The notes under the pieces are model-generated. The model searched no databases. It saw only the letters and a program-made list of their open reading frames with translations, and was not told the DNA's origin. From positions 14,408 through 78,407 of the forward strand of contig CAZBTA010000001.1 in assembly GCA_964494515.1 (NCBI GenBank): a stretch of 64,000 bases of DNA, read 5' to 3'. Shown one piece after another: positions 5,484-12,260 of this stretch (positions within the stretch are counted from its first letter, which is position 1; each line of letters starts with the position of its first letter). A program made the translations under genes and the position numbers. Source of the stretch: an uncultured Bryobacter sp. (GTDB lineage: Bacteria > Acidobacteriota > Terriglobia > Bryobacterales > Bryobacteraceae).

Positions 5484-6998
5484 GTGAATCTGGTGGTGAT
5501 ACTCGGCGATCAACTGGACGCCGGGAGCGCGGCTTTTGATGGATTTGACCCGCGGCAAGACCGCGTCTGGATGGCCGAAGTGGCCGCCGAGAGCGAGTAC
5601 GTGTGGTCGCACAAGGCGCGCATCACCATCTTTTTGGCTGCGATGCGCCACTTTCGCGATGCCTTGCGGGACCGCGGCTTTACGGTGGATTACCACGCGC
5701 TTGAAGACAACCCGGCAGATGCCACCATCGCCTCGCTGCTCAAGCGCAGCATGACAAAGCTCAAGCCCGAGCGCGTGATCGTCGTCGAGCCTGGCGAGTA
5801 TCGACTGCGCGAAGACCTGTTGGCTCTGGGGCCGAAGATTGAGATCCGCGCCGACCGCCACTTCATGAGCTCTGTCGATGACTTTCGCGAGCATGCGCGC
5901 GGTCGCAAGCAGTTGCGCATGGAGTATTTCTACCGTGAGATGCGCCGGCGGTATGGTTACCTGATGGACAAGGGTGAGCCGGCGGGTGGGGCATGGAATT
6001 TTGACTCGGAGAATCGCGGCAGCTTTCCGAAGTCGGGGCCGGGCCTGCTGCCCGCGCCGCTTGAGTTCAAGCCTGACGCCATCACGCGTGAGGTGATCGC
6101 GCTTGTCGAAAAGCGCTTCGCCAGCCACCCGGGCAACCTCAAGTCTTTCTCCTGGCCGCTAACCGCTGCCGAGGCCCGCGCGGCGCTCCATGACTTTATC
6201 GAGAACCGTCTGCCTTACTTCGGGCTGTATCAGGATGCCATGTGGACCGGTGAGCCGTGGCTTTACCACTCGCGCATCTCCGCGGCATTGAATCTGAAGC
6301 TGCTCGACCCACGAGAGGCCTGTGTCGCCGCCCAGGACGCCTGGGAGCGTGGGAAGGCCCCGCTCGAAGCCGTTGAGGGTTTTATCCGCCAGATCCTTGG
6401 CTGGCGCGAATACGTTCGTGGCATCTACTGGCTGCATATGCCGGAGTATCTCGAAAAGAACGCGCTCGAGGCGACGCAGCCACTGCCGGCGTTTTTCTGG
6501 GATGGCAATACCGAGATGGAATGCCTGCGCCAGGCGATTGGCCAAACTCTGGAGCATGGCTACGCGCATCACATCCAGCGGCTTATGGTGACGGGGCTTT
6601 TCACGCTGCTGCTGGGCGTCGATCCGCGGCGGGTGCACGAGTGGTATCTCGCTGTTTATGTAGATGCCGTGGAATGGGTGGAGTTGCCCAACACGCTCGG
6701 CATGAGCCAGTTTGGCGACGGGGGCATCATGGCCTCCAAGCCTTATGCGGCGAGCGGCAAGTACATCCAGCGCATGTCCAACTATTGCGGGCATTGCCAG
6801 TACGATCCTGCCGAGAGCGTGGGCGAAAAGGCATGCCCGTTCACCACGCTTTATTGGGACTTTCTGATGCGGCATGAGCAGCGGCTGGGCAAAGTGGGGC
6901 GCATGGACATGCAGTTGCGCAACCTCGTCCGCATCGCCCCGGCCAAGAAGGCCGCCATCAGCCAACAGGCAGATCAGATCAGGGAACGATATCAATGA
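5484..6998 (+). CDS. Cryptochrome/photolyase-family protein of the FeS-BCP (CryB/PhrB, COG3046-like) type
   Basis: 504 aa. N-terminus MNLVVILGDQLD...SHKARITIFLAAMRHF is typical of the deoxyribodipyrimidine photolyase-related family. The C-terminal cysteine set (MECLRQA ... YCGHCQYDPAESVGEKACPF) matches the 4Fe-4S ligand pattern of FeS-BCPs. Confidence 0.8.
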   Translation: MNLVVILGDQLDAGSAAFDGFDPRQDRVWMAEVAAESEYVWSHKARITIFLAAMRHFRDALRDRGFTVDYHALEDNPADATIASLLKRSMTKLKPERVIVVEPGEYRLREDLLALGPKIEIRADRHFMSSVDDFREHARGRKQLRMEYFYREMRRRYGYLMDKGEPAGGAWNFDSENRGSFPKSGPGLLPAPLEFKPDAITREVIALVEKRFASHPGNLKSFSWPLTAAEARAALHDFIENRLPYFGLYQDAMWTGEPWLYHSRISAALNLKLLDPREACVAAQDAWERGKAPLEAVEGFIRQILGWREYVRGIYWLHMPEYLEKNALEATQPLPAFFWDGNTEMECLRQAIGQTLEHGYAHHIQRLMVTGLFTLLLGVDPRRVHEWYLAVYVDAVEWVELPNTLGMSQFGDGGIMASKPYAASGKYIQRMSNYCGHCQYDPAESVGEKACPFTTLYWDFLMRHEQRLGKVGRMDMQLRNLVRIAPAKKAAISQQADQIRERYQ

Positions 6999-7705
6999 AA
7001 ACAGTAATCGGAGCCGCTTACGGCGGCGTAGGGTCAGCGCTGGCGCGGCAGTTGGCGGCGGCTGGACATGAGCTGCTGCTGCTGGGGCGCAATGGTGACA
7101 AGCTTGCCGCGCTGTGCGGCGAGATCGGGGGGCAGTATGTGCCGCTCGATCTGACCAACCTCGAAGCGGTTGAAGCCGCGGTGGGTTCGTTTGGTCCTGT
7201 CGATGCGGTGGTCAATTGCGCCGGCAGCATTCTGCTCAAGCCCGCTCACCTGACAAGCGAGGCGGAGTTCCAGCAGACGATTGACACCAACCTGAAGACG
7301 GCCTTTGTCTGCTTGCGGGCGGCCGCGCGCAACATGCCGCAGGGGGGCTCGGTGGTGTTGGTCTCAACGGCGGCGGCACGAATCGGCTATGCCAATCATG
7401 AAGCCATTGCCGCGGCCAAGGCTGGCGTTACCGGTATGGCGCTGGCGGCGGCGGCCACCTATGCGCCGCGCAATATTCGCGTCAATGTAGTGGCCCCCGG
7501 CCTCGTCGACACGCCCCTCGCGAGCCGCATCACCAGCAACGAGATGGCCCTCAAGGCGTCCACCGCGATGCACGCCCTTGGTCGCATTGGCAAGCCCGAA
7601 GACGTTGCCCGGATGATCGCCTTCCTCGTCGACCCGGCCAATGCCTGGGTGACCGGGCAGCTGTTTGGCGTCGATGGTGGCCTCGGCACACTTCGGGCAA
7701 AATAA
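6995..7705 (+). CDS. SDR-family oxidoreductase
   Basis: 236 aa. Short-chain dehydrogenase features are present (NCAGS, Y-x3-K as YANHEAIAAAKAG, PGLVDTPL). The ATG overlaps the photolyase stop (ATGA). Confidence 0.8.
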   Translation: MKTVIGAAYGGVGSALARQLAAAGHELLLLGRNGDKLAALCGEIGGQYVPLDLTNLEAVEAAVGSFGPVDAVVNCAGSILLKPAHLTSEAEFQQTIDTNLKTAFVCLRAAARNMPQGGSVVLVSTAAARIGYANHEAIAAAKAGVTGMALAAAATYAPRNIRVNVVAPGLVDTPLASRITSNEMALKASTAMHALGRIGKPEDVARMIAFLVDPANAWVTGQLFGVDGGLGTLRAK

Positions 7706-7709
7706 TCTC

Positions 7710-7741
7710 TTGACTCCGTACCTTGATACGGCCCGGAGAAT
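7710..7741 (+). promoter_or_regulatory. mer-type operator/promoter (TTGACT -35 fused to a 7-4-7 dyad)
   Basis: The sequence is TTGACTCCGTACCTTGATACGGCCCGGAGAAT. The -35 hexamer TTGACT (7710-7715) runs directly into the dyad TCCGTAC-CTTG-ATACGGC (7715-7732). From memory, Tn501/Tn21 merOP reads TTGACTCCGTACATGAGTACGGAAGTAAGGT, so the first 12 nt are identical and the 7-4-7 geometry is the same. A 19-20 bp spacer would put the -10 at GGAGAA/GAGAAT (7735-7741). Confidence 0.55.
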
Positions 7742-7747
7742 TAAGGC

Positions 7748-7837
7748 ATGAAGACCAAAACCTGTTCCTGCTGCGGATCCTGCCCCTGCGGTGATCCGAA
7801 CTGTGCCTGCGATTGTTGCAAGACAATCAAGGTATGA
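7748..7837 (+). CDS. 29-aa cysteine-rich (9 Cys) metallothionein-like peptide
   Basis: Too short for the ORF track. The sequence atg aag acc aaa acc tgt tcc tgc tgc gga tcc tgc ccc tgc ggt gat ccg aac tgt gcc tgc gat tgt tgc aag aca atc aag gta tga encodes MKTKTCSCCGSCPCGDPNCACDCCKTIKV. GGAGAA lies 7 nt upstream. The stop TGA overlaps the ATG of merR (gtATGAcc). Confidence 0.55.
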   Translation: MKTKTCSCCGSCPCGDPNCACDCCKTIKV

Positions 7838-8229
7838 CCATTGCTGAAGCCGCGCGACGAGCCGGAGTGGGCGTAGAGACGATTCGTTACTACGAACGTG
7901 AAGGCCTCGTCGCGCAGCCAGCCAAGCCAAAGAACGGTTACCGGCAGTACAGCGAGAAGCACGTCGAACGCATTCGCTTTCTGAAGCAATGTCAGCAGTT
8001 TGGCTTTACTCTCGCCGAAGGCGCGCAACTGGCGGAATCCCTCGAGGTGGGCTCAACAAATTGCGCCACTACCTGTGAGCTTGCCGAGCGCAAGCTGGTT
8101 GAGCTGCGTCGCAAGATTGCCGAGTATCAGGCGCTCGCCGCACGCATGGAAGCTCTGCTGAGCGAACCCTGTCGCGGCAAGCGTGGCGAAGAGTGCACTG
8201 TCGTGAGCGCGATTCGCGAAGGCGCCTAA
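7834..8229 (+). CDS. merR: MerR-family heavy-metal (Hg-type) responsive transcriptional regulator
   Basis: MTIAEAARRAGVGVETIRYYEREGLV is an N-terminal MerR helix-turn-helix. The Cys pattern TNCATTC ... RMEALLSEPCRGKRGEECTVV lines up with Tn501 MerR C82/C117/C126 (recalled as [24 protein letters not shown]). I prefer the 7834 start over the track start at 7813 because the HTH should sit at the N-terminus. Confidence 0.8.
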   Translation: MTIAEAARRAGVGVETIRYYEREGLVAQPAKPKNGYRQYSEKHVERIRFLKQCQQFGFTLAEGAQLAESLEVGSTNCATTCELAERKLVELRRKIAEYQALAARMEALLSEPCRGKRGEECTVVSAIREGA

Positions 8230-10376
8230 CTGTTATCGCGAGTACGTGCCACCGTGGTCTGCGCGGCCAGCATTTTGCCCGCCGCCTCCGCCGTCAGTGG
8301 TGGGGCATACAGATAGCCCTGCCCAAAGCCACAACCCAGATTGCGCAGCTCATCGGCTTGCAGCCGCGTCTCAATCCCCTCCGCCACCACATGCAGCCCC
8401 AGGCTGCCCGCCAGCAGAATAATCGCGCGCACGATCTCATAGGCGGCATGATCTTCCACCATCGAGCTGATGAACGAACGATCGATCTTGAGCGTATCGA
8501 ACGGCAGCTTGTGCAGGTAGCTGAGCGATGAGTAGCCGGTGCCGAAGTCATCGATCTTCAACCCCACACCCATCTGTCGCAGCTCGGTCACCAGTTCCAG
8601 GGCCTGCGCCGGGTCCTGCACCAACACGCTCTCGGTCACTTCAAACTGCAGCGTGGCGGGCGGAATCTGCGTCTCGGAGAGAATCTTGCGGATCTCCTCG
8701 AGCAGATGCCGGTCCTGGAACTGCCGCACGCTCAGATTCACGCTGATCTCAAGAGGCTTTGGCTGCGGGAACATCTCCTGCCAGCGCTTTACCCGTTCGC
8801 AAGCCTCACGCACCGCACGGATGCCGATCGGAATGATCAGGCCACTTTCTTCGGCGATCTGGATGAAGTTGCGCGGGGGGATGATGCCCTTCACCGGATG
8901 TCGCCACCGCAGCAGCGCCTCAAAGCCGATGATGCGTTCGGTCTGGAGATCCACCTTGGGCTGGTAGTAAAGCTCAAATTCCCATTGCTCGATGGCCCGC
9001 TTCAGCTCGTTCTCAAACGACATGCGCTCGAGTACGTTCTCGCGCATCTCGCGGTCGAACTGCACGATACGATTGCCGCCATCACTGCGCGCCGAATGCA
9101 GCGCAATCTCGGCATCGCGCCAGATCTCGTCGGCCCGGCGCCGATCCTCGCGCAAGACAAACCCGAGGCTTGTGGACAAGAACAGCTCGCTGCCCTGCAG
9201 CCAGATGCCTTTGGCCATGACTGATTGCAGCCGTTCGGAGATCAGGTATGCCGTTTCGGCGGATTGAATGCCCGGCAGCGCAATCGCAAACTCATCATCA
9301 CTGACGCGCGCCAGCAGCCACTCGCGGCTCGAGCGATCGCCCGCCGTCAGCGAATCGCGCAAGCGCTCGCCGGCCAGGCGCAGCAACTGATTGGCCACGC
9401 TCTGTCCCAATGAATCGCGGATCAGGCCAAAACGATCGATGCCCACCAGAAACAGGGCCAGGCCCATATCCTCGCAATCTTGATGAACGTCTTCGAGCCA
9501 GTCCTCAAACTGAAAGCGATTGGCGAGGCCGGTAACCGGGTCCATCGTTTTCGCCTCGGTGATGTCCGTGTGCGAGCCGCTGATCGCAATGATGTCGCCA
9601 AACTCGTCACGCTCCAGCCGCCCGCGCAGCAGCACCCAGCGCCAGCCCCCGTCACGATGGCGCAGGCGGAACTCGAAGTTGAGTTCCTCTGGCAGCGCGC
9701 GCCAGTCGTTGCCACTCATGGCCGAGCTGAGCCGAGAAAGATCGAGCGGATGAATCAACGTCAGGCATTCATCGAGCGTGCCGCTCACCTCGCTTGCGCT
9801 AAAGCCACACAGATTGCGAAAGTTCTGGCTGAAGTCGATCGTGCGGGTGCGCAGATCGAGCCGCCACAGATCCTGCGCATGAACGGTTTGCTTGTGTTGC
9901 TCGAGCAACAGCTCGGCATGACGCCGGTCTGACGCCATCTGAAAGCCCATTGCCGAATCATGCAGGGCGCGCCGGGCCTTGCCGGCGACGAGATCCCAAT
10001 CCCAGGGAGTGGAAAAGAAGTCCTGCGCCCCAATGCCGAGCGCGTCATAGACATTCTGGCGGTGATACTCAAGGCAGGCAATGAAGATCGGCAAGGGCCG
10101 GTTGCCCTCGGCTTCGAGAAACGCCGTAATGGCGCGCGCCAGATCCCGATGCCAACAATCTGAAAGTAGAACCACCAGGCCGAGCGGTGTGCCCAGTTTG
10201 CGACATTCTTCTGCCACGGCCAGGGCTTCTTCGGCGCTCTGACAGGCAAAAACGGCGTCGTTGAGCTGCGACAGGAAGTCCCGCCAGTCGCTGACTGGCA
10301 GGGCTCTCCCCAGCTCATGGGGAAGGCTAAGCAAGAGTACCGGCATTTCCGGCAGTTCGAATCGGGATCCTTCCAC
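8226..10376 (-). CDS. Signalling protein: REC-like N-terminus, PAS, degenerate GGDEF, EAL (probable c-di-GMP phosphodiesterase)
   Basis: 716 aa. The GGDEF position reads ARVSDDEFAIAL (GG replaced by SD). EAL-domain motifs are intact (FEALLRW, DDFGTGYSSLSYL, KIDRSF, EGIE). Confidence 0.85.
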   Translation of the reverse strand: MEGSRFELPEMPVLLLSLPHELGRALPVSDWRDFLSQLNDAVFACQSAEEALAVAEECRKLGTPLGLVVLLSDCWHRDLARAITAFLEAEGNRPLPIFIACLEYHRQNVYDALGIGAQDFFSTPWDWDLVAGKARRALHDSAMGFQMASDRRHAELLLEQHKQTVHAQDLWRLDLRTRTIDFSQNFRNLCGFSASEVSGTLDECLTLIHPLDLSRLSSAMSGNDWRALPEELNFEFRLRHRDGGWRWVLLRGRLERDEFGDIIAISGSHTDITEAKTMDPVTGLANRFQFEDWLEDVHQDCEDMGLALFLVGIDRFGLIRDSLGQSVANQLLRLAGERLRDSLTAGDRSSREWLLARVSDDEFAIALPGIQSAETAYLISERLQSVMAKGIWLQGSELFLSTSLGFVLREDRRRADEIWRDAEIALHSARSDGGNRIVQFDREMRENVLERMSFENELKRAIEQWEFELYYQPKVDLQTERIIGFEALLRWRHPVKGIIPPRNFIQIAEESGLIIPIGIRAVREACERVKRWQEMFPQPKPLEISVNLSVRQFQDRHLLEEIRKILSETQIPPATLQFEVTESVLVQDPAQALELVTELRQMGVGLKIDDFGTGYSSLSYLHKLPFDTLKIDRSFISSMVEDHAAYEIVRAIILLAGSLGLHVVAEGIETRLQADELRNLGCGFGQGYLYAPPLTAEAAGKMLAAQTTVARTRDNS

Positions 10377-10409
10377 TTCCCTGTCCTCATCGGACAGGTT
10401 GATGATCCT

Positions 10410-12260
10410 TTAGAGAACTACACGTTGATCGCCGACCCGGCGAGTGATTTTCTCGCGATCGAAGTACTCAAGCAGCGGAATCGCGTACTTGCGGGAGACC
10501 GATGTCCAGTCTTTAAACTCCACAACGCCGAAGGTCTGCCCCTTGCGCTGCTTGAGCATCTCCCTCAGGTCACTGAGTGGACTAGAGTGAAACACCAGTT
10601 CCTGGCCTACGCGAACCAGCTTGCCCGCTCGCAGCAACACTGCGAGGACGGCCTTGGCGCGCGAGGTTTCCATGCCGGTCGAACGCAACACCTCATCCAC
10701 CGCTGGCACGGCGAGGCCCGCATCGAGAAAGGCCTTCTCGATCGTTTGCGAGGCGGCATCGTCCGCCCCGGCCAGTTGCACTTTGTGGCTTTCGAGCCGC
10801 AGCAGGTCGCCCTCAGCCTTTACAGCCGGGGCCAGTCGCAGCAATGCGTCCATTACGCCGGCGGGCGCGCCCGCCAGCAGGCCACTGCGCAACGCCTCAC
10901 GCGAAAGACCAGGCTCGAGCGGATGCTCGCGGTGATACTCGCGCAGGCGATCCACCAGTTGTCTGGCGATGGGTTTCAGGTTGGCAGTTGCCACCAGCCA
11001 GTTGCCGATCGTGAGGGCTTCCGCTGGCATGGTGGCCGGCAGAGTTCCAAGCCGGCGCCGGGCATCCACCAGCGCCATGCCCATCGGGCGCTCATTGAGC
11101 AGCGTCAGCAGCCGTTGCGCTTCACTGGCGCTCTGCCACTGGCGCAGGCGCTCGACGGCGCCCTTGCGCCGCATGCGTACGGCATCAGGATGCAGTTCGA
11201 GCACACTGCCGCCGGCGATGGTGATCACCGGTGAGAAGCTGCGCAGGATAAAGCGATCCCCGGGCAGGATCAGCGTCGGCGCTTCCAGCACAACTCGGGC
11301 AAAGGCGGATTGGCCCGGCTCGATTACGCGCCGCTCGTCGAGCACGCGGATCTCGGCCAGCGATTCCATGGTTCCGGTATGAAAATGCACCCGGGCCCGG
11401 TCGCGTATGGCGCGTGCGCTCGAGAGCAACTGGATCTCGGCGTCAAACACGCGCACGGGTTCAAACAGATCGCCTGGCGCGGCCACCAGCCCACGGGTGA
11501 CATCGCTAGCCTCAATGCCGGCAAGATTGACGGCTGTGCGTTGACCGGCAAAGGCTTCCTTTACGGCGGCCCCATGCACCTGCAACCCCCGCACCCGCAC
11601 GCGTCGCCCTGAAGGATACAGTTCGACTTCGCTTTCAACGGCAAGCTTGCCTTCGCGCAAAGTGCCCGTTACGACCGTGCCATGGCCCTTCATTACAAAG
11701 GCGCGATCAATCGGCAGCCGTGGTGGCCGCTGGGTGTCACGGGCGGAAAGACCACTGGCGGCACTTGTAATCGCGGCGAGCAACGCCTCCATGCCAAGGC
11801 CCGTTACGGCGCTTACCGGAATGGCTGGCGCGCCCTCAAGAAAGCTGCCGCGCACAAAATCCTCAAGCTCAAGCCGCACCAGCGTCAGCCATTCTTCGTC
11901 GACAAGATCCGCCTTGGTAATGGCGATCACGCCACGCTCGAGGCCGAGCAACCGGCAGATCTCAAAGTGTTCTCGCGTCTGGGGCTTGATCGCCTCATCG
12001 GCGGCGACCACAAACAGCACAACGTCAATCCCGCTCACTCCGGCCAGCATGTTGCGCACAAAACGCTCATGGCCGGGCACATCGATAAAGGCGATGTTGG
12101 GGCCCTTGGCGGGTTTGAAATTGGCAAACCCGAGGTCGATCGAGATGCCGCGTTCCTTCTCTTCTTTGAGGCGATCGGTGTCGATGCCGGTGAGCGCCTT
12201 GACGAGCGTGGTCTTGCCGTGGTCGATATGCCCAGCGGTGCCGACGATAATGTTCTTCAT
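10410..12260 (-). CDS. selB: Selenocysteine-specific translation elongation factor SelB
   Basis: 616 aa. [46 protein letters not shown] is the G domain. The long C-terminal winged-helix extension ends ...KYAIPLLEYFDREKITRRVGDQRVV, as expected for a SECIS-binding domain. Confidence 0.9.
   Translation of the reverse strand: MKNIIVGTAGHIDHGKTTLVKALTGIDTDRLKEEKERGISIDLGFANFKPAKGPNIAFIDVPGHERFVRNMLAGVSGIDVVLFVVAADEAIKPQTREHFEICRLLGLERGVIAITKADLVDEEWLTLVRLELEDFVRGSFLEGAPAIPVSAVTGLGMEALLAAITSAASGLSARDTQRPPRLPIDRAFVMKGHGTVVTGTLREGKLAVESEVELYPSGRRVRVRGLQVHGAAVKEAFAGQRTAVNLAGIEASDVTRGLVAAPGDLFEPVRVFDAEIQLLSSARAIRDRARVHFHTGTMESLAEIRVLDERRVIEPGQSAFARVVLEAPTLILPGDRFILRSFSPVITIAGGSVLELHPDAVRMRRKGAVERLRQWQSASEAQRLLTLLNERPMGMALVDARRRLGTLPATMPAEALTIGNWLVATANLKPIARQLVDRLREYHREHPLEPGLSREALRSGLLAGAPAGVMDALLRLAPAVKAEGDLLRLESHKVQLAGADDAASQTIEKAFLDAGLAVPAVDEVLRSTGMETSRAKAVLAVLLRAGKLVRVGQELVFHSSPLSDLREMLKQRKGQTFGVVEFKDWTSVSRKYAIPLLEYFDREKITRRVGDQRVVL

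Follow-up and report, generated by a model that had tools for sequence, protein, structure and literature searches.

The locus described here is a cassette of about 520 bp in a 64-kb stretch of DNA from an uncultured Bryobacter sp. (the window), in which a MerR-type promoter and operator are followed by a small open reading frame (ORF) for a cysteine-rich peptide and then by the gene for a MerR-family metal sensor (Table 1). An earlier reading of the letters alone (the sequence-only reading) had described a TTGACT -35 hexamer joined to a dyad of 7-4-7 geometry and, behind it, an unannotated 90-nt ORF with nine Cys in 29 residues whose stop overlaps the merR start codon as ATGA. Each of these elements is in place; the arms of the dyad are complementary at 5 of 7 positions, and the CCGTA/TACGG core pairs perfectly. 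That reading had also noted the lack of a mercuric reductase, MerT or MerP nearby, and tblastn with Tn501-type MerA, MerT, MerP and MerE queries across the whole window gave a best E value of only 0.23. Neither the P1B-ATPase DKTGT motif nor an HMA motif occurs in any frame of the 64 kb, and we found no merT, merP or merA beside the 15 related cassettes described below.

Table 1. Features of the cassette, with positions numbered from the first letter of the window.
Feature	Position	Strand	Remarks
-35 hexamer TTGACT	7710-7715	+	Invariant in 16 of 16 peptide-linked loci
MerR operator dyad TCCGTAC-CTTG-ATACGGC	7715-7732		Core CCGTA n6 TACGG, inside the promoter spacer
Left operator arm TCCGTAC	7715-7721
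Operator spacer CTTG	7722-7725
Right operator arm ATACGGC	7726-7732
Predicted -10 hexamer GAGAAT	7736-7741	+	20 bp beyond the -35, an over-long, MerR-type spacer; function predicted from position
Predicted transcription start, A of the ATG	7748	+	Would give a leaderless mRNA; predicted from promoter geometry
Small ORF, 29-amino-acid, nine-Cys metallothionein-like peptide MKTKTCSCCGSCPCGDPNCACDCCKTIKV	7748-7837	+	90 nt; conserved, under purifying selection
Peptide tail K-T-I-K-V	7820-7837	+	Translated former spacer
ATGA stop/start overlap, peptide TGA with merR ATG	7834-7837	+	Would imply translational coupling
MerR-family metal sensor, 131 amino acids	7834-8229	+	Helix-turn-helix (residues 1-66), dimerisation helix, C-terminal metal loop
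CxxxC: Cys77 codon 8062-8064, Cys81 codon 8074-8076	8062-8076	+	At the start of the dimerisation helix
Metal-binding loop C-x7-C: Cys113 codon 8170-8172, Cys121 codon 8194-8196	8170-8196	+	Aligns with Tn501 C117/C126 and CueR C112/C120

The peptide, whose 17-residue core is CSCCGSCPCGDPNCACDCC, is 31% Cys, arranged in CxCC, CxxC, CxC and CC motifs, and contains no Phe, Trp, Tyr or His. With its low mass, its ~30% Cys in CxC, CC and CxxC motifs and its lack of aromatic residues, it falls within the operational definition of a metallothionein; it has no signal sequence and is probably a cytoplasmic chelator. It is the sole product of 20-60 amino acids with more than six Cys that any ORF in the window encodes, and nine Cys were reached in only 1 of 200 shuffles.

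To find out how widely the ORF is conserved we relied on the regulator beside it. Searching with the MerR protein separated an orthologue group (P0001-P0016; 61-99% identity, 167-252 bits) from a next match at 106 bits, and in the contigs that we examined for eight orthologue clusters the uncalled gap upstream of merR held the same kind of ORF in every case (8/8). The orthologous peptides, namely MKTKTCTCCGSCPCGDPNCACGCCKTIKV, MKTPTTRGCSCCTTCPCGDPNCKCPCCNSGK, MKKTSTRGCSCCATCPCGNPDCKCSCCTGSK and MKTKSVRGCSCCSNCPCGDPKCTCSCCNGGKK, together with MNNKSCSCCTACPCGNANCPCPCCKKSGKR, MRNTTFRGCTCCGSCPCGDPNCPCACCNGGKTVTTIKV and MKTKTRGCTCCTTCPCGNTNCSCSCCAGSKK, follow the pattern C-x-CC-x2-C-P-C-G-[DN]-x2-C-x-C-x-CC, in which all nine Cys are invariant across the ten orthologous loci. 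At the codon level (Nei-Gojobori), comparison of the window with its more distant orthologues gave a proportion of synonymous differences (pS) of 0.68-0.80, which is saturated, versus a proportion of nonsynonymous differences (pN) of 0.19-0.24, and many conserved Cys codons have been swapped between TGC and TGT with all nine kept as Cys. The sequence-only reading had proposed looking for synonymous-biased substitution in related genomes, and this bias is plainly present. On such comparative evidence, the small ORF is a real conserved coding gene under purifying selection.

A wider scan with the MerR, which took one genome per species and reached relatives of at most 49% identity, added five distant genomes, labelled Solibacteraceae, Bryobacteraceae or Bryobacterales. 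There a longer Cys-rich ORF of 30-47 amino acids and 10-14 Cys (for example MTATVTKKCCEKCTCPTCGTGVPCKGCGCNCGCACCKK) sits directly between the same operator and a merR homologue, with a normal leader, GAAAGGAG, ahead of its start codon. Among the six family members that we aligned, the window peptide and distant ones included, neither CC-x2-C-x-C nor C-x-C-x-CC varies. Whether the peptide is always found upstream of a merR homologue had been posed as a question by the sequence-only reading, and it is so found in all 15 other distinct loci. The surroundings are less constant: upstream, the orthologous loci have an SDR gene, PhoD or a divergent gene as their neighbour, the PAS-GGDEF-EAL and SelB genes downstream keep their synteny in all of these loci and are absent from the distant group, and in the distant group both flanks differ. 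Because the flanking genes differ, the conserved unit consists of operator, peptide and MerR, and MerR is the only conserved partner of the ORF, with no modifying enzyme conserved beside it.

The closest named relatives of the SelB encoded in the window come from an 'Acidobacteria bacterium' (73%), a Bryobacter sp. (65%) and Bryobacteraceae (53-55%), and these matches, taken with the genome labels, make both sub-groups Bryobacterales-type Acidobacteriota on present sampling. Scanning metagenomes with an alignment of the cassette MerRs yielded no further cassette among the 80 loci listed, a search with a single pattern that says little about abundance. Nor did we find any description of such a cassette in the literature, where our coverage was incomplete and an earlier description elsewhere is possible. 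The peptide family, its dedicated four-Cys MerR lineage and the predicted leaderless, thionein-first operon appear to form a new combination, so far confined to Bryobacterales.

That the family has escaped notice reflects an annotation gap, since the peptides are invisible to current gene callers. On contig JBMUHC010000111.1 of the metagenome-assembled genome (MAG) GCA_049309705.1, which matches the window, the small ORF was left uncalled. Exact-sequence look-up of ten of the peptides in a collection of ~15 billion predicted proteins returned none, and a profile search with a six-peptide alignment against a 5.8-billion-protein database gave 279 word-sharing candidates and no match at E up to 1, because the peptides had never been called as genes. 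Six family members had no match at E up to 10 in Pfam or NCBIfam, and no peptide match appeared at that threshold in a PDB sequence search; compositional-bias filters may contribute to both results. In several records the region, with 7813-7837 as the part of the window concerned, is mis-annotated as part of MerR: for P0008, P0013 and P0015 the callers extend the regulator 5' across the peptide in an incorrect frame, creating spurious Ala/Leu-rich N-termini. An Rfam search of the region found nothing above threshold. A sub-threshold resemblance to an R1162-like plasmid antisense RNA at 7400-7468 on the minus strand, inside the SDR gene (26.6 bits versus a gathering score of 55, E = 0.036), is most likely due to chance.

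The regulator itself belongs without ambiguity to the MerR family, matching PF13411 (3.9e-20), PF00376 (2.2e-14) and PF09278 (2.8e-12) above their gathering scores. Its top-scoring NCBIfam model is the Hg-MerR equivalog TIGR02051, at 108.6 bits versus a cutoff of 150.85, followed by CadR-PbrR (TIGR02047; 92.7 versus 151.45), CueR (88.2 versus 147.4) and ZntR (75.3 versus 167.95); models for SoxR, NmlR and other non-metal-sensing members of the family score far lower. Its best relatives in the PDB are Tn501 MerR (5crl, 88 bits) and Bacillus MerR (75 bits), then CueR (67), CadR (64) and PbrR (62). In a neighbour-joining tree the peptide-linked MerRs group with one another, surrounded by merTPA-linked MerRs and separate from the CadR/P1B-ATPase clade, and the nine-Cys orthologue group has a bootstrap of 100/100. 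Model scores, PDB matches and tree agree in placing the protein in the metal-sensing clade, closest to Hg-MerR and, as the sequence-only reading had supposed, apart from redox and drug sensors. A HMMER alignment to 5crl likewise bears out the three metal-binding Cys that had been recognised there, pairing C77, C113 and C121 with Tn501 C82, C117 and C126. The label 'Hg-type' that was attached to the protein fares less well: the best match and the Cys triad are those of an Hg-MerR, but the score falls short of the equivalog cutoff, the metal loop has the length of CueR's (C-x7-C) and there is an additional Cys at position 81.

This additional Cys sets the cassette regulators apart. Cys81 stands one helical turn past C77 and is invariant in both cassette sub-groups. 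When we aligned 174 MerR relatives and labelled them by genomic context, Cys81 was present in 15 of 15 peptide-linked proteins, none of 66 linked to merT, merP or merA, none of 19 linked to a P1B-ATPase (15 of which have Asn) and 2 of 70 unlabelled ones; it is also found in L079, which lies outside that alignment. One of the two unlabelled exceptions stands at a contig end (L086); for the other (L088) the promoter is divergent and there is no ORF rich in Cys. In crystal structures of CadR, one chain supplies Cys77 and Asn81 to site I and the other supplies Cys112' and Cys119', with Asn81 aiding Cd selectivity (PMC6789929), and it is with the position of this Cd ligand, Asn81, that Cys81 aligns. 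The divalent-metal MerR sensors that we sampled all have Cys at position 77, and so does the window protein, whereas CueR has Ser77; within the loop Cys121 is invariant and Cys113 is conserved within the orthologue group. The cassette MerRs therefore probably have a four-thiolate site, which would fit Cd(II), Zn(II) or Hg(II) and does not single out one metal.

Two further observations concern relatives of the sensor. Most MerR orthologues (P0003, P0004, P0006-P0010 and P0012-P0015), the window protein not among them, carry an extra Cys within their last few residues (...TGECRS, ...GSCNS, ...KGC), possibly an additional ligand or a redox-active tail. The nearest relative without a peptide is a 231-amino-acid MerR from a Deltaproteobacteria MAG (L040, 3942-4675), which has the same operator and ends in a fused thioredoxin/glutaredoxin-like domain that contains CPxC motifs; we considered it as a MerR-thionein fusion and rejected it, the C-terminal domain being thioredoxin-like.

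The promoter agrees with a regulator of this type. TTGACT is invariant not only in the peptide-linked loci but also in ~60 further MerR-type promoters of the fetched set, and the operator consensus CCGTAC-n4-[ACG]TACGG is kept among the orthologues. The operator pattern TTGACTCCGTACNNNNNTACGG occurs as a single copy in the window even when 3 mismatches are allowed (shuffles expect 0.08), so that the 64 kb hold no second operator. As a Tn501 reference we used the record of plasmid pPALO552, which encodes a MerR 100% identical to that of Tn501 and has, between merT and merR, the Tn501-type merO sequence CTTGACTCCGTACATGAGTACGGAAGTAAGGT. The window has the first 13 consecutive bases in common with it (CTTGACTCCGTAC), with 5 of 7 positions matching in the right arm; the sequence-only reading had put the identity with the Tn501/Tn21 operator at 12 nt. 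In the orthologues the -10 stands at the identical position and reads TAGGCT, TAAGCT, TAGCCT, TACCAT, TAGGAT or TATCCT, all TAnnnT-like, and no conventional sigma-70 promoter with a 16-18 bp spacer was found in 7400-8600. A closely related operator, TTGACTCCGTAGTCACTACAGGG, drives P1B-type ATPases of 676-821 amino acids with very long His-rich N-termini in Pandoraea (L017, L020, L021, L024, L027). Because the operators of these ATPases carry the left half-site, the half-site TTGACTCCGTA is not specific to mercury systems.

The position of the start codon relative to this promoter is constant. In all ten orthologous loci the distance from the first T of TTGACT to the ATG is exactly 38 nt: the -35 is followed by a 20-bp spacer that includes the dyad, the -10 hexamer, six bases and then the ATG, 7 nt after the -10. 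This puts the A of the ATG as far from the -10 as a start site canonically lies. A GGAG before the ATG, in the window a possible Shine-Dalgarno sequence 9 nt upstream, occurs only in the window's own sub-lineage (the window, L162 and L163); the other 7 of the ten loci have none, and no conserved Shine-Dalgarno was found before the peptide ATG among them. The sequence-only reading had left two options open, a leaderless mRNA or GGAGAA as Shine-Dalgarno, and promoter geometry favours the former over the latter, which would concern a single sub-lineage. In other phyla of the fetched set it is merR itself that starts at the same 38-nt offset (L040, L118, L122 and L138).

How merR is translated can be read in part from the junction between the two genes. 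The ATGA overlap is present in the window, L162 and L163, which form one sub-lineage, and L170 acquired it independently through another change; the remaining orthologues have a conserved peptide-merR spacer of 13-25 nt, ACAAT[TC]AAGnnATG, with no Shine-Dalgarno. This arrangement suggests that merR is translated through termination-reinitiation coupling to the peptide. By comparison with the spacers of L164, L166, L167 and L171, the last residues of the window peptide, K-T-I-K-V, are the former spacer (ACAAT[TC]AAGnnATGAC) in translated form, the ancestral stop having been lost, and the functional core of the peptide is therefore its 19-residue Cys block.

We consider it probable, if well short of assured, that the cassette is a self-contained, autoregulated two-gene module in which a MerR controls a mini-metallothionein directed at a toxic soft metal. 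A MerR dimer would sit on the dyad of a promoter whose -35 and -10, 20 bp apart, are too far from each other for efficient open-complex formation. Binding of a thiophilic ion, most likely a divalent one such as Hg(II) or Cd(II) and possibly Zn(II) or Pb(II), to a site to which one subunit contributes Cys77 and Cys81 and the other Cys113 and Cys121 would untwist the DNA and fire the promoter, as in other MerR activators. Transcription starting at the ATG or an adjacent base would yield a leaderless bicistronic mRNA, with the first cistron giving a minimal metallothionein, as large as a single M(II)3Cys9 beta-domain, that would sequester the metal in the cytoplasm, and the second giving the sensor itself by coupling or re-initiation. 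The M(II)3Cys9 beta-cluster of animal metallothionein uses nine Cys and also takes Hg (PMC6789929, PMC6582439). As the peptide built up, free metal would fall and the promoter would reset, closing a loop of sensing, sequestration and shut-off that would need no reductase, transporter or efflux pump.

Several observations weigh against this picture. The metallothionein label rests on composition and context, as the peptide matches no known metallothionein family, and 29 residues offer a limited sequestration capacity unless the peptide is made abundantly. The MerR scores below every metal-specific NCBIfam cutoff and its effector therefore cannot be named; moreover, Cys113 is missing in two distant members (L025 and L078), so the site may differ between the sub-groups. 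Joining the nine-Cys and long-peptide groups in the tree has a bootstrap of only 16-19/100, and the case for their common origin therefore rests mainly on the peptide motifs, Cys81, the architecture and the taxon. In the promoter, the -10 of the window lacks the usual first T, and its GGAG could act as a Shine-Dalgarno for read-through transcripts from the SDR gene, which is possible because no terminator was found between that gene and the cassette.

The same facts can be read in other ways. The peptide might be mainly the sensor's partner, a metallochaperone or buffer that exchanges metal with the four-Cys site or binds MerR itself, setting the threshold and resetting the switch. This would suit the strict co-occurrence of Cys81 with the peptide (15/15, versus 0/85 for mer- or ATPase-linked MerRs), a peptide:MerR ratio fixed by translational coupling, the small capacity of a single nine-Cys peptide and a cassette with no other output. 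We nevertheless hold it to be unlikely, if worth keeping in mind: physical interaction is a supposition, and a length and Cys number (9-14) that vary between sub-groups would sooner be expected of a thionein that sequesters metal than of a docking partner. The idea also overlaps with the sequestration model and does not exclude it. A related speculation, to which we give a small chance, is that the thionein is the sensor's dedicated exchange partner, loading and stripping the tetrathiolate site of MerR, with coupled leaderless synthesis fixing the ratio of buffer to sensor in a co-evolved minimal homeostat. Were that so, an exchange-partner homeostat with a built-in reset would have no described parallel among MerR regulators. 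The signal, too, could be another one. Thioneins that are very short and rich in CxC are typically Cu(I) proteins, the metal loop has exactly the C-x7-C of CueR, Cys residues at i and i+4 on a helix could form a disulfide, and L040, the nearest relative that lacks the peptide, has a thioredoxin-like CPxC domain fused to it, all of which would agree with a module that senses thiol or redox stress or Cu(I), in which the MerR CxxxC is redox-active or Cu(I)-binding and the peptide a sacrificial thiol buffer or a Cu(I)-thionein like the short fungal Cu-thioneins or MymT (cited as a Cu(I) example in PMC10141476 and PMC11672702). Position 77 is Cys rather than the Ser of CueR, however, the MerR and CadR models outscore CueR and far outscore SoxR and NmlR, and the operator is of the mer type, and we therefore regard this as distinctly unlikely.

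The remaining possibilities concern whether the ORF exists for its peptide at all. Standing directly before a merR that lacks its own Shine-Dalgarno, with an ATGA overlap or a short spacer, it could be a regulatory upstream ORF (uORF) or leader, in which translation, or stalling either at the nine Cys codons or on a nascent chain that has bound metal, sets the MerR level and the released peptide has no function. The CutF-CutO system is a precedent: there, a small upstream ORF with a metal motif controls the downstream gene by translation (PMC9973294). Selection here, however, extends beyond Cys codon content to exact Cys spacing and to CPCG[DN]P, and the thionein-like patterns are kept while length, leader type and spacer change; as a uORF, moreover, it would leave the cassette a regulator without a regulated product. 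Attenuation that senses Cys-tRNA is not something that regulators are known to need, and a uORF strikes us as very improbable. A precursor of a peptide made on ribosomes and modified after translation (RiPP) would also be a short, Cys-rich, unannotated ORF beside a regulator, but with no modifying enzyme conserved alongside, neighbours that vary and no leader/core organisation in the peptide, the locus does not qualify as a RiPP system, and this origin is hardly credible. Next to no chance is left for an ORF that arose accidentally from an out-of-frame, TGC-rich, GC-rich sequence or from an N-terminal MerR extension in another frame. GC-rich genomes do yield spurious Cys-rich frames, and callers did extend MerR through the region in P0008, P0013 and P0015; against this, the Cys frame stays open in 16 of 16 loci, where its Cys positions do not vary and its changes are biased towards synonymous ones, stops interrupt the MerR-frame extension in the window, L162-L166 and L005, and, as noted above, a nine-Cys ORF is rare in shuffles, so that conservation effectively refutes a chance ORF.

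A metal-responsive mini-metallothionein, the reading that we prefer, has partial counterparts among known systems. With Tn501/Tn21 mer the cassette shares the -35 and left operator arm (the 13 identical bases), the over-long spacer, the Cys triad and its best PDB and NCBIfam match. It differs in that the window has no merT, merP or merA, that merR would be co-transcribed behind its target rather than divergently, that the spacer is 20 bp instead of 19 bp, that the metal loop is one residue shorter and that Cys81 is added. Gram-positive or actinobacterial-style mer operons with a leaderless, autoregulated merR resemble it in having merR in the transcript that it controls; there, however, merR is the first cistron and usually mer-linked (merP in L118 and L138, none detected in L040 and L122), whereas in the cassette the thionein ORF takes the leaderless first position and merR is then the only other gene. 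The nearest precedent is PaCadR, reported in 2025 to activate zrd, a small Cys-rich zinc-ribbon protein proposed to be metallothionein-like (PMC12301328), in that a divalent-metal sensor of the MerR family turns on a small metal binder rich in Cys. CadR also draws a fourth site I ligand from residue 81 (PMC6789929), although it has Asn81 and a His-rich second site where the cassette MerR has Cys81 and no His87/His90, and its main target is a P1B-ATPase, absent here. The zrd product is a folded double Cys4 zinc ribbon encoded at a separate locus, whereas the thionein of the cassette has 29 residues and would share the sensor's transcript.

Nine Cys arranged as CxC, CC and CxxC within ~25-30 residues, with no aromatics, also describe the beta-domain of animal metallothionein and the short fungal Cu-thioneins. 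The cassette peptide resembles these in size and Cys arrangement, which makes an M(II)3Cys9 cluster plausible; the organisms, gene organisation and regulator differ, and with no detectable homology the likeness would be convergent. Bacterial metallothioneins such as SmtA/BmtA (cyanobacteria, Pseudomonas) and MymT (Mycobacterium) are, like the proposed product, small cytoplasmic Cys-rich metal sequesterers with a dedicated sensor, yet they have no sequence similarity to the cassette peptide. The known ones are under ArsR-type (SmtB-SmtA) or CsoR-type (RicR-MymT) repressors (PMC10141476). SmtA has ~56 amino acids, His ligands, a zinc-finger fold and the ArsR-family repressor SmtB, and MymT has ~53 amino acids, binds Cu(I) and answers to the CsoR-family RicR (PMC10141476), whereas the cassette peptides are all-Cys, 29-47 amino acids long and, on our reading, under a MerR-type activator encoded in the same mRNA.

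Few bacterial metallothionein families are known (SmtA/BmtA, MymT and a few others). If our interpretation is right, the cassette adds an ultra-short, all-Cys family with its own MerR-type activator, in an abundant and poorly studied soil phylum, the Acidobacteriota, and a mer-type switch has been re-used to drive sequestration instead of reduction and volatilisation. The natural change of Asn or Arg to Cys at sensor residue 81 would offer a test of MerR metal selectivity, and a sensor and chelator packed into so little DNA would be attractive for biosensor or bioremediation design.

The genes around the cassette in the window are as follows. On the minus strand (8226-12260), a PAS-GGDEF-EAL gene converges on merR, overlapping its last 4 nt, and is followed by SelB; a functional link of either to the cassette is not evident. 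Upstream (5484-7705) lie a gene of the photolyase-related DPRP family (PF04244) and one for an SDR, which overlap by ATGA at 6995-6998, and the SDR gene ends 5 nt before the cassette -35. This DPRP-SDR pair is found upstream in some of the orthologous loci only, and in others PhoD replaces it.

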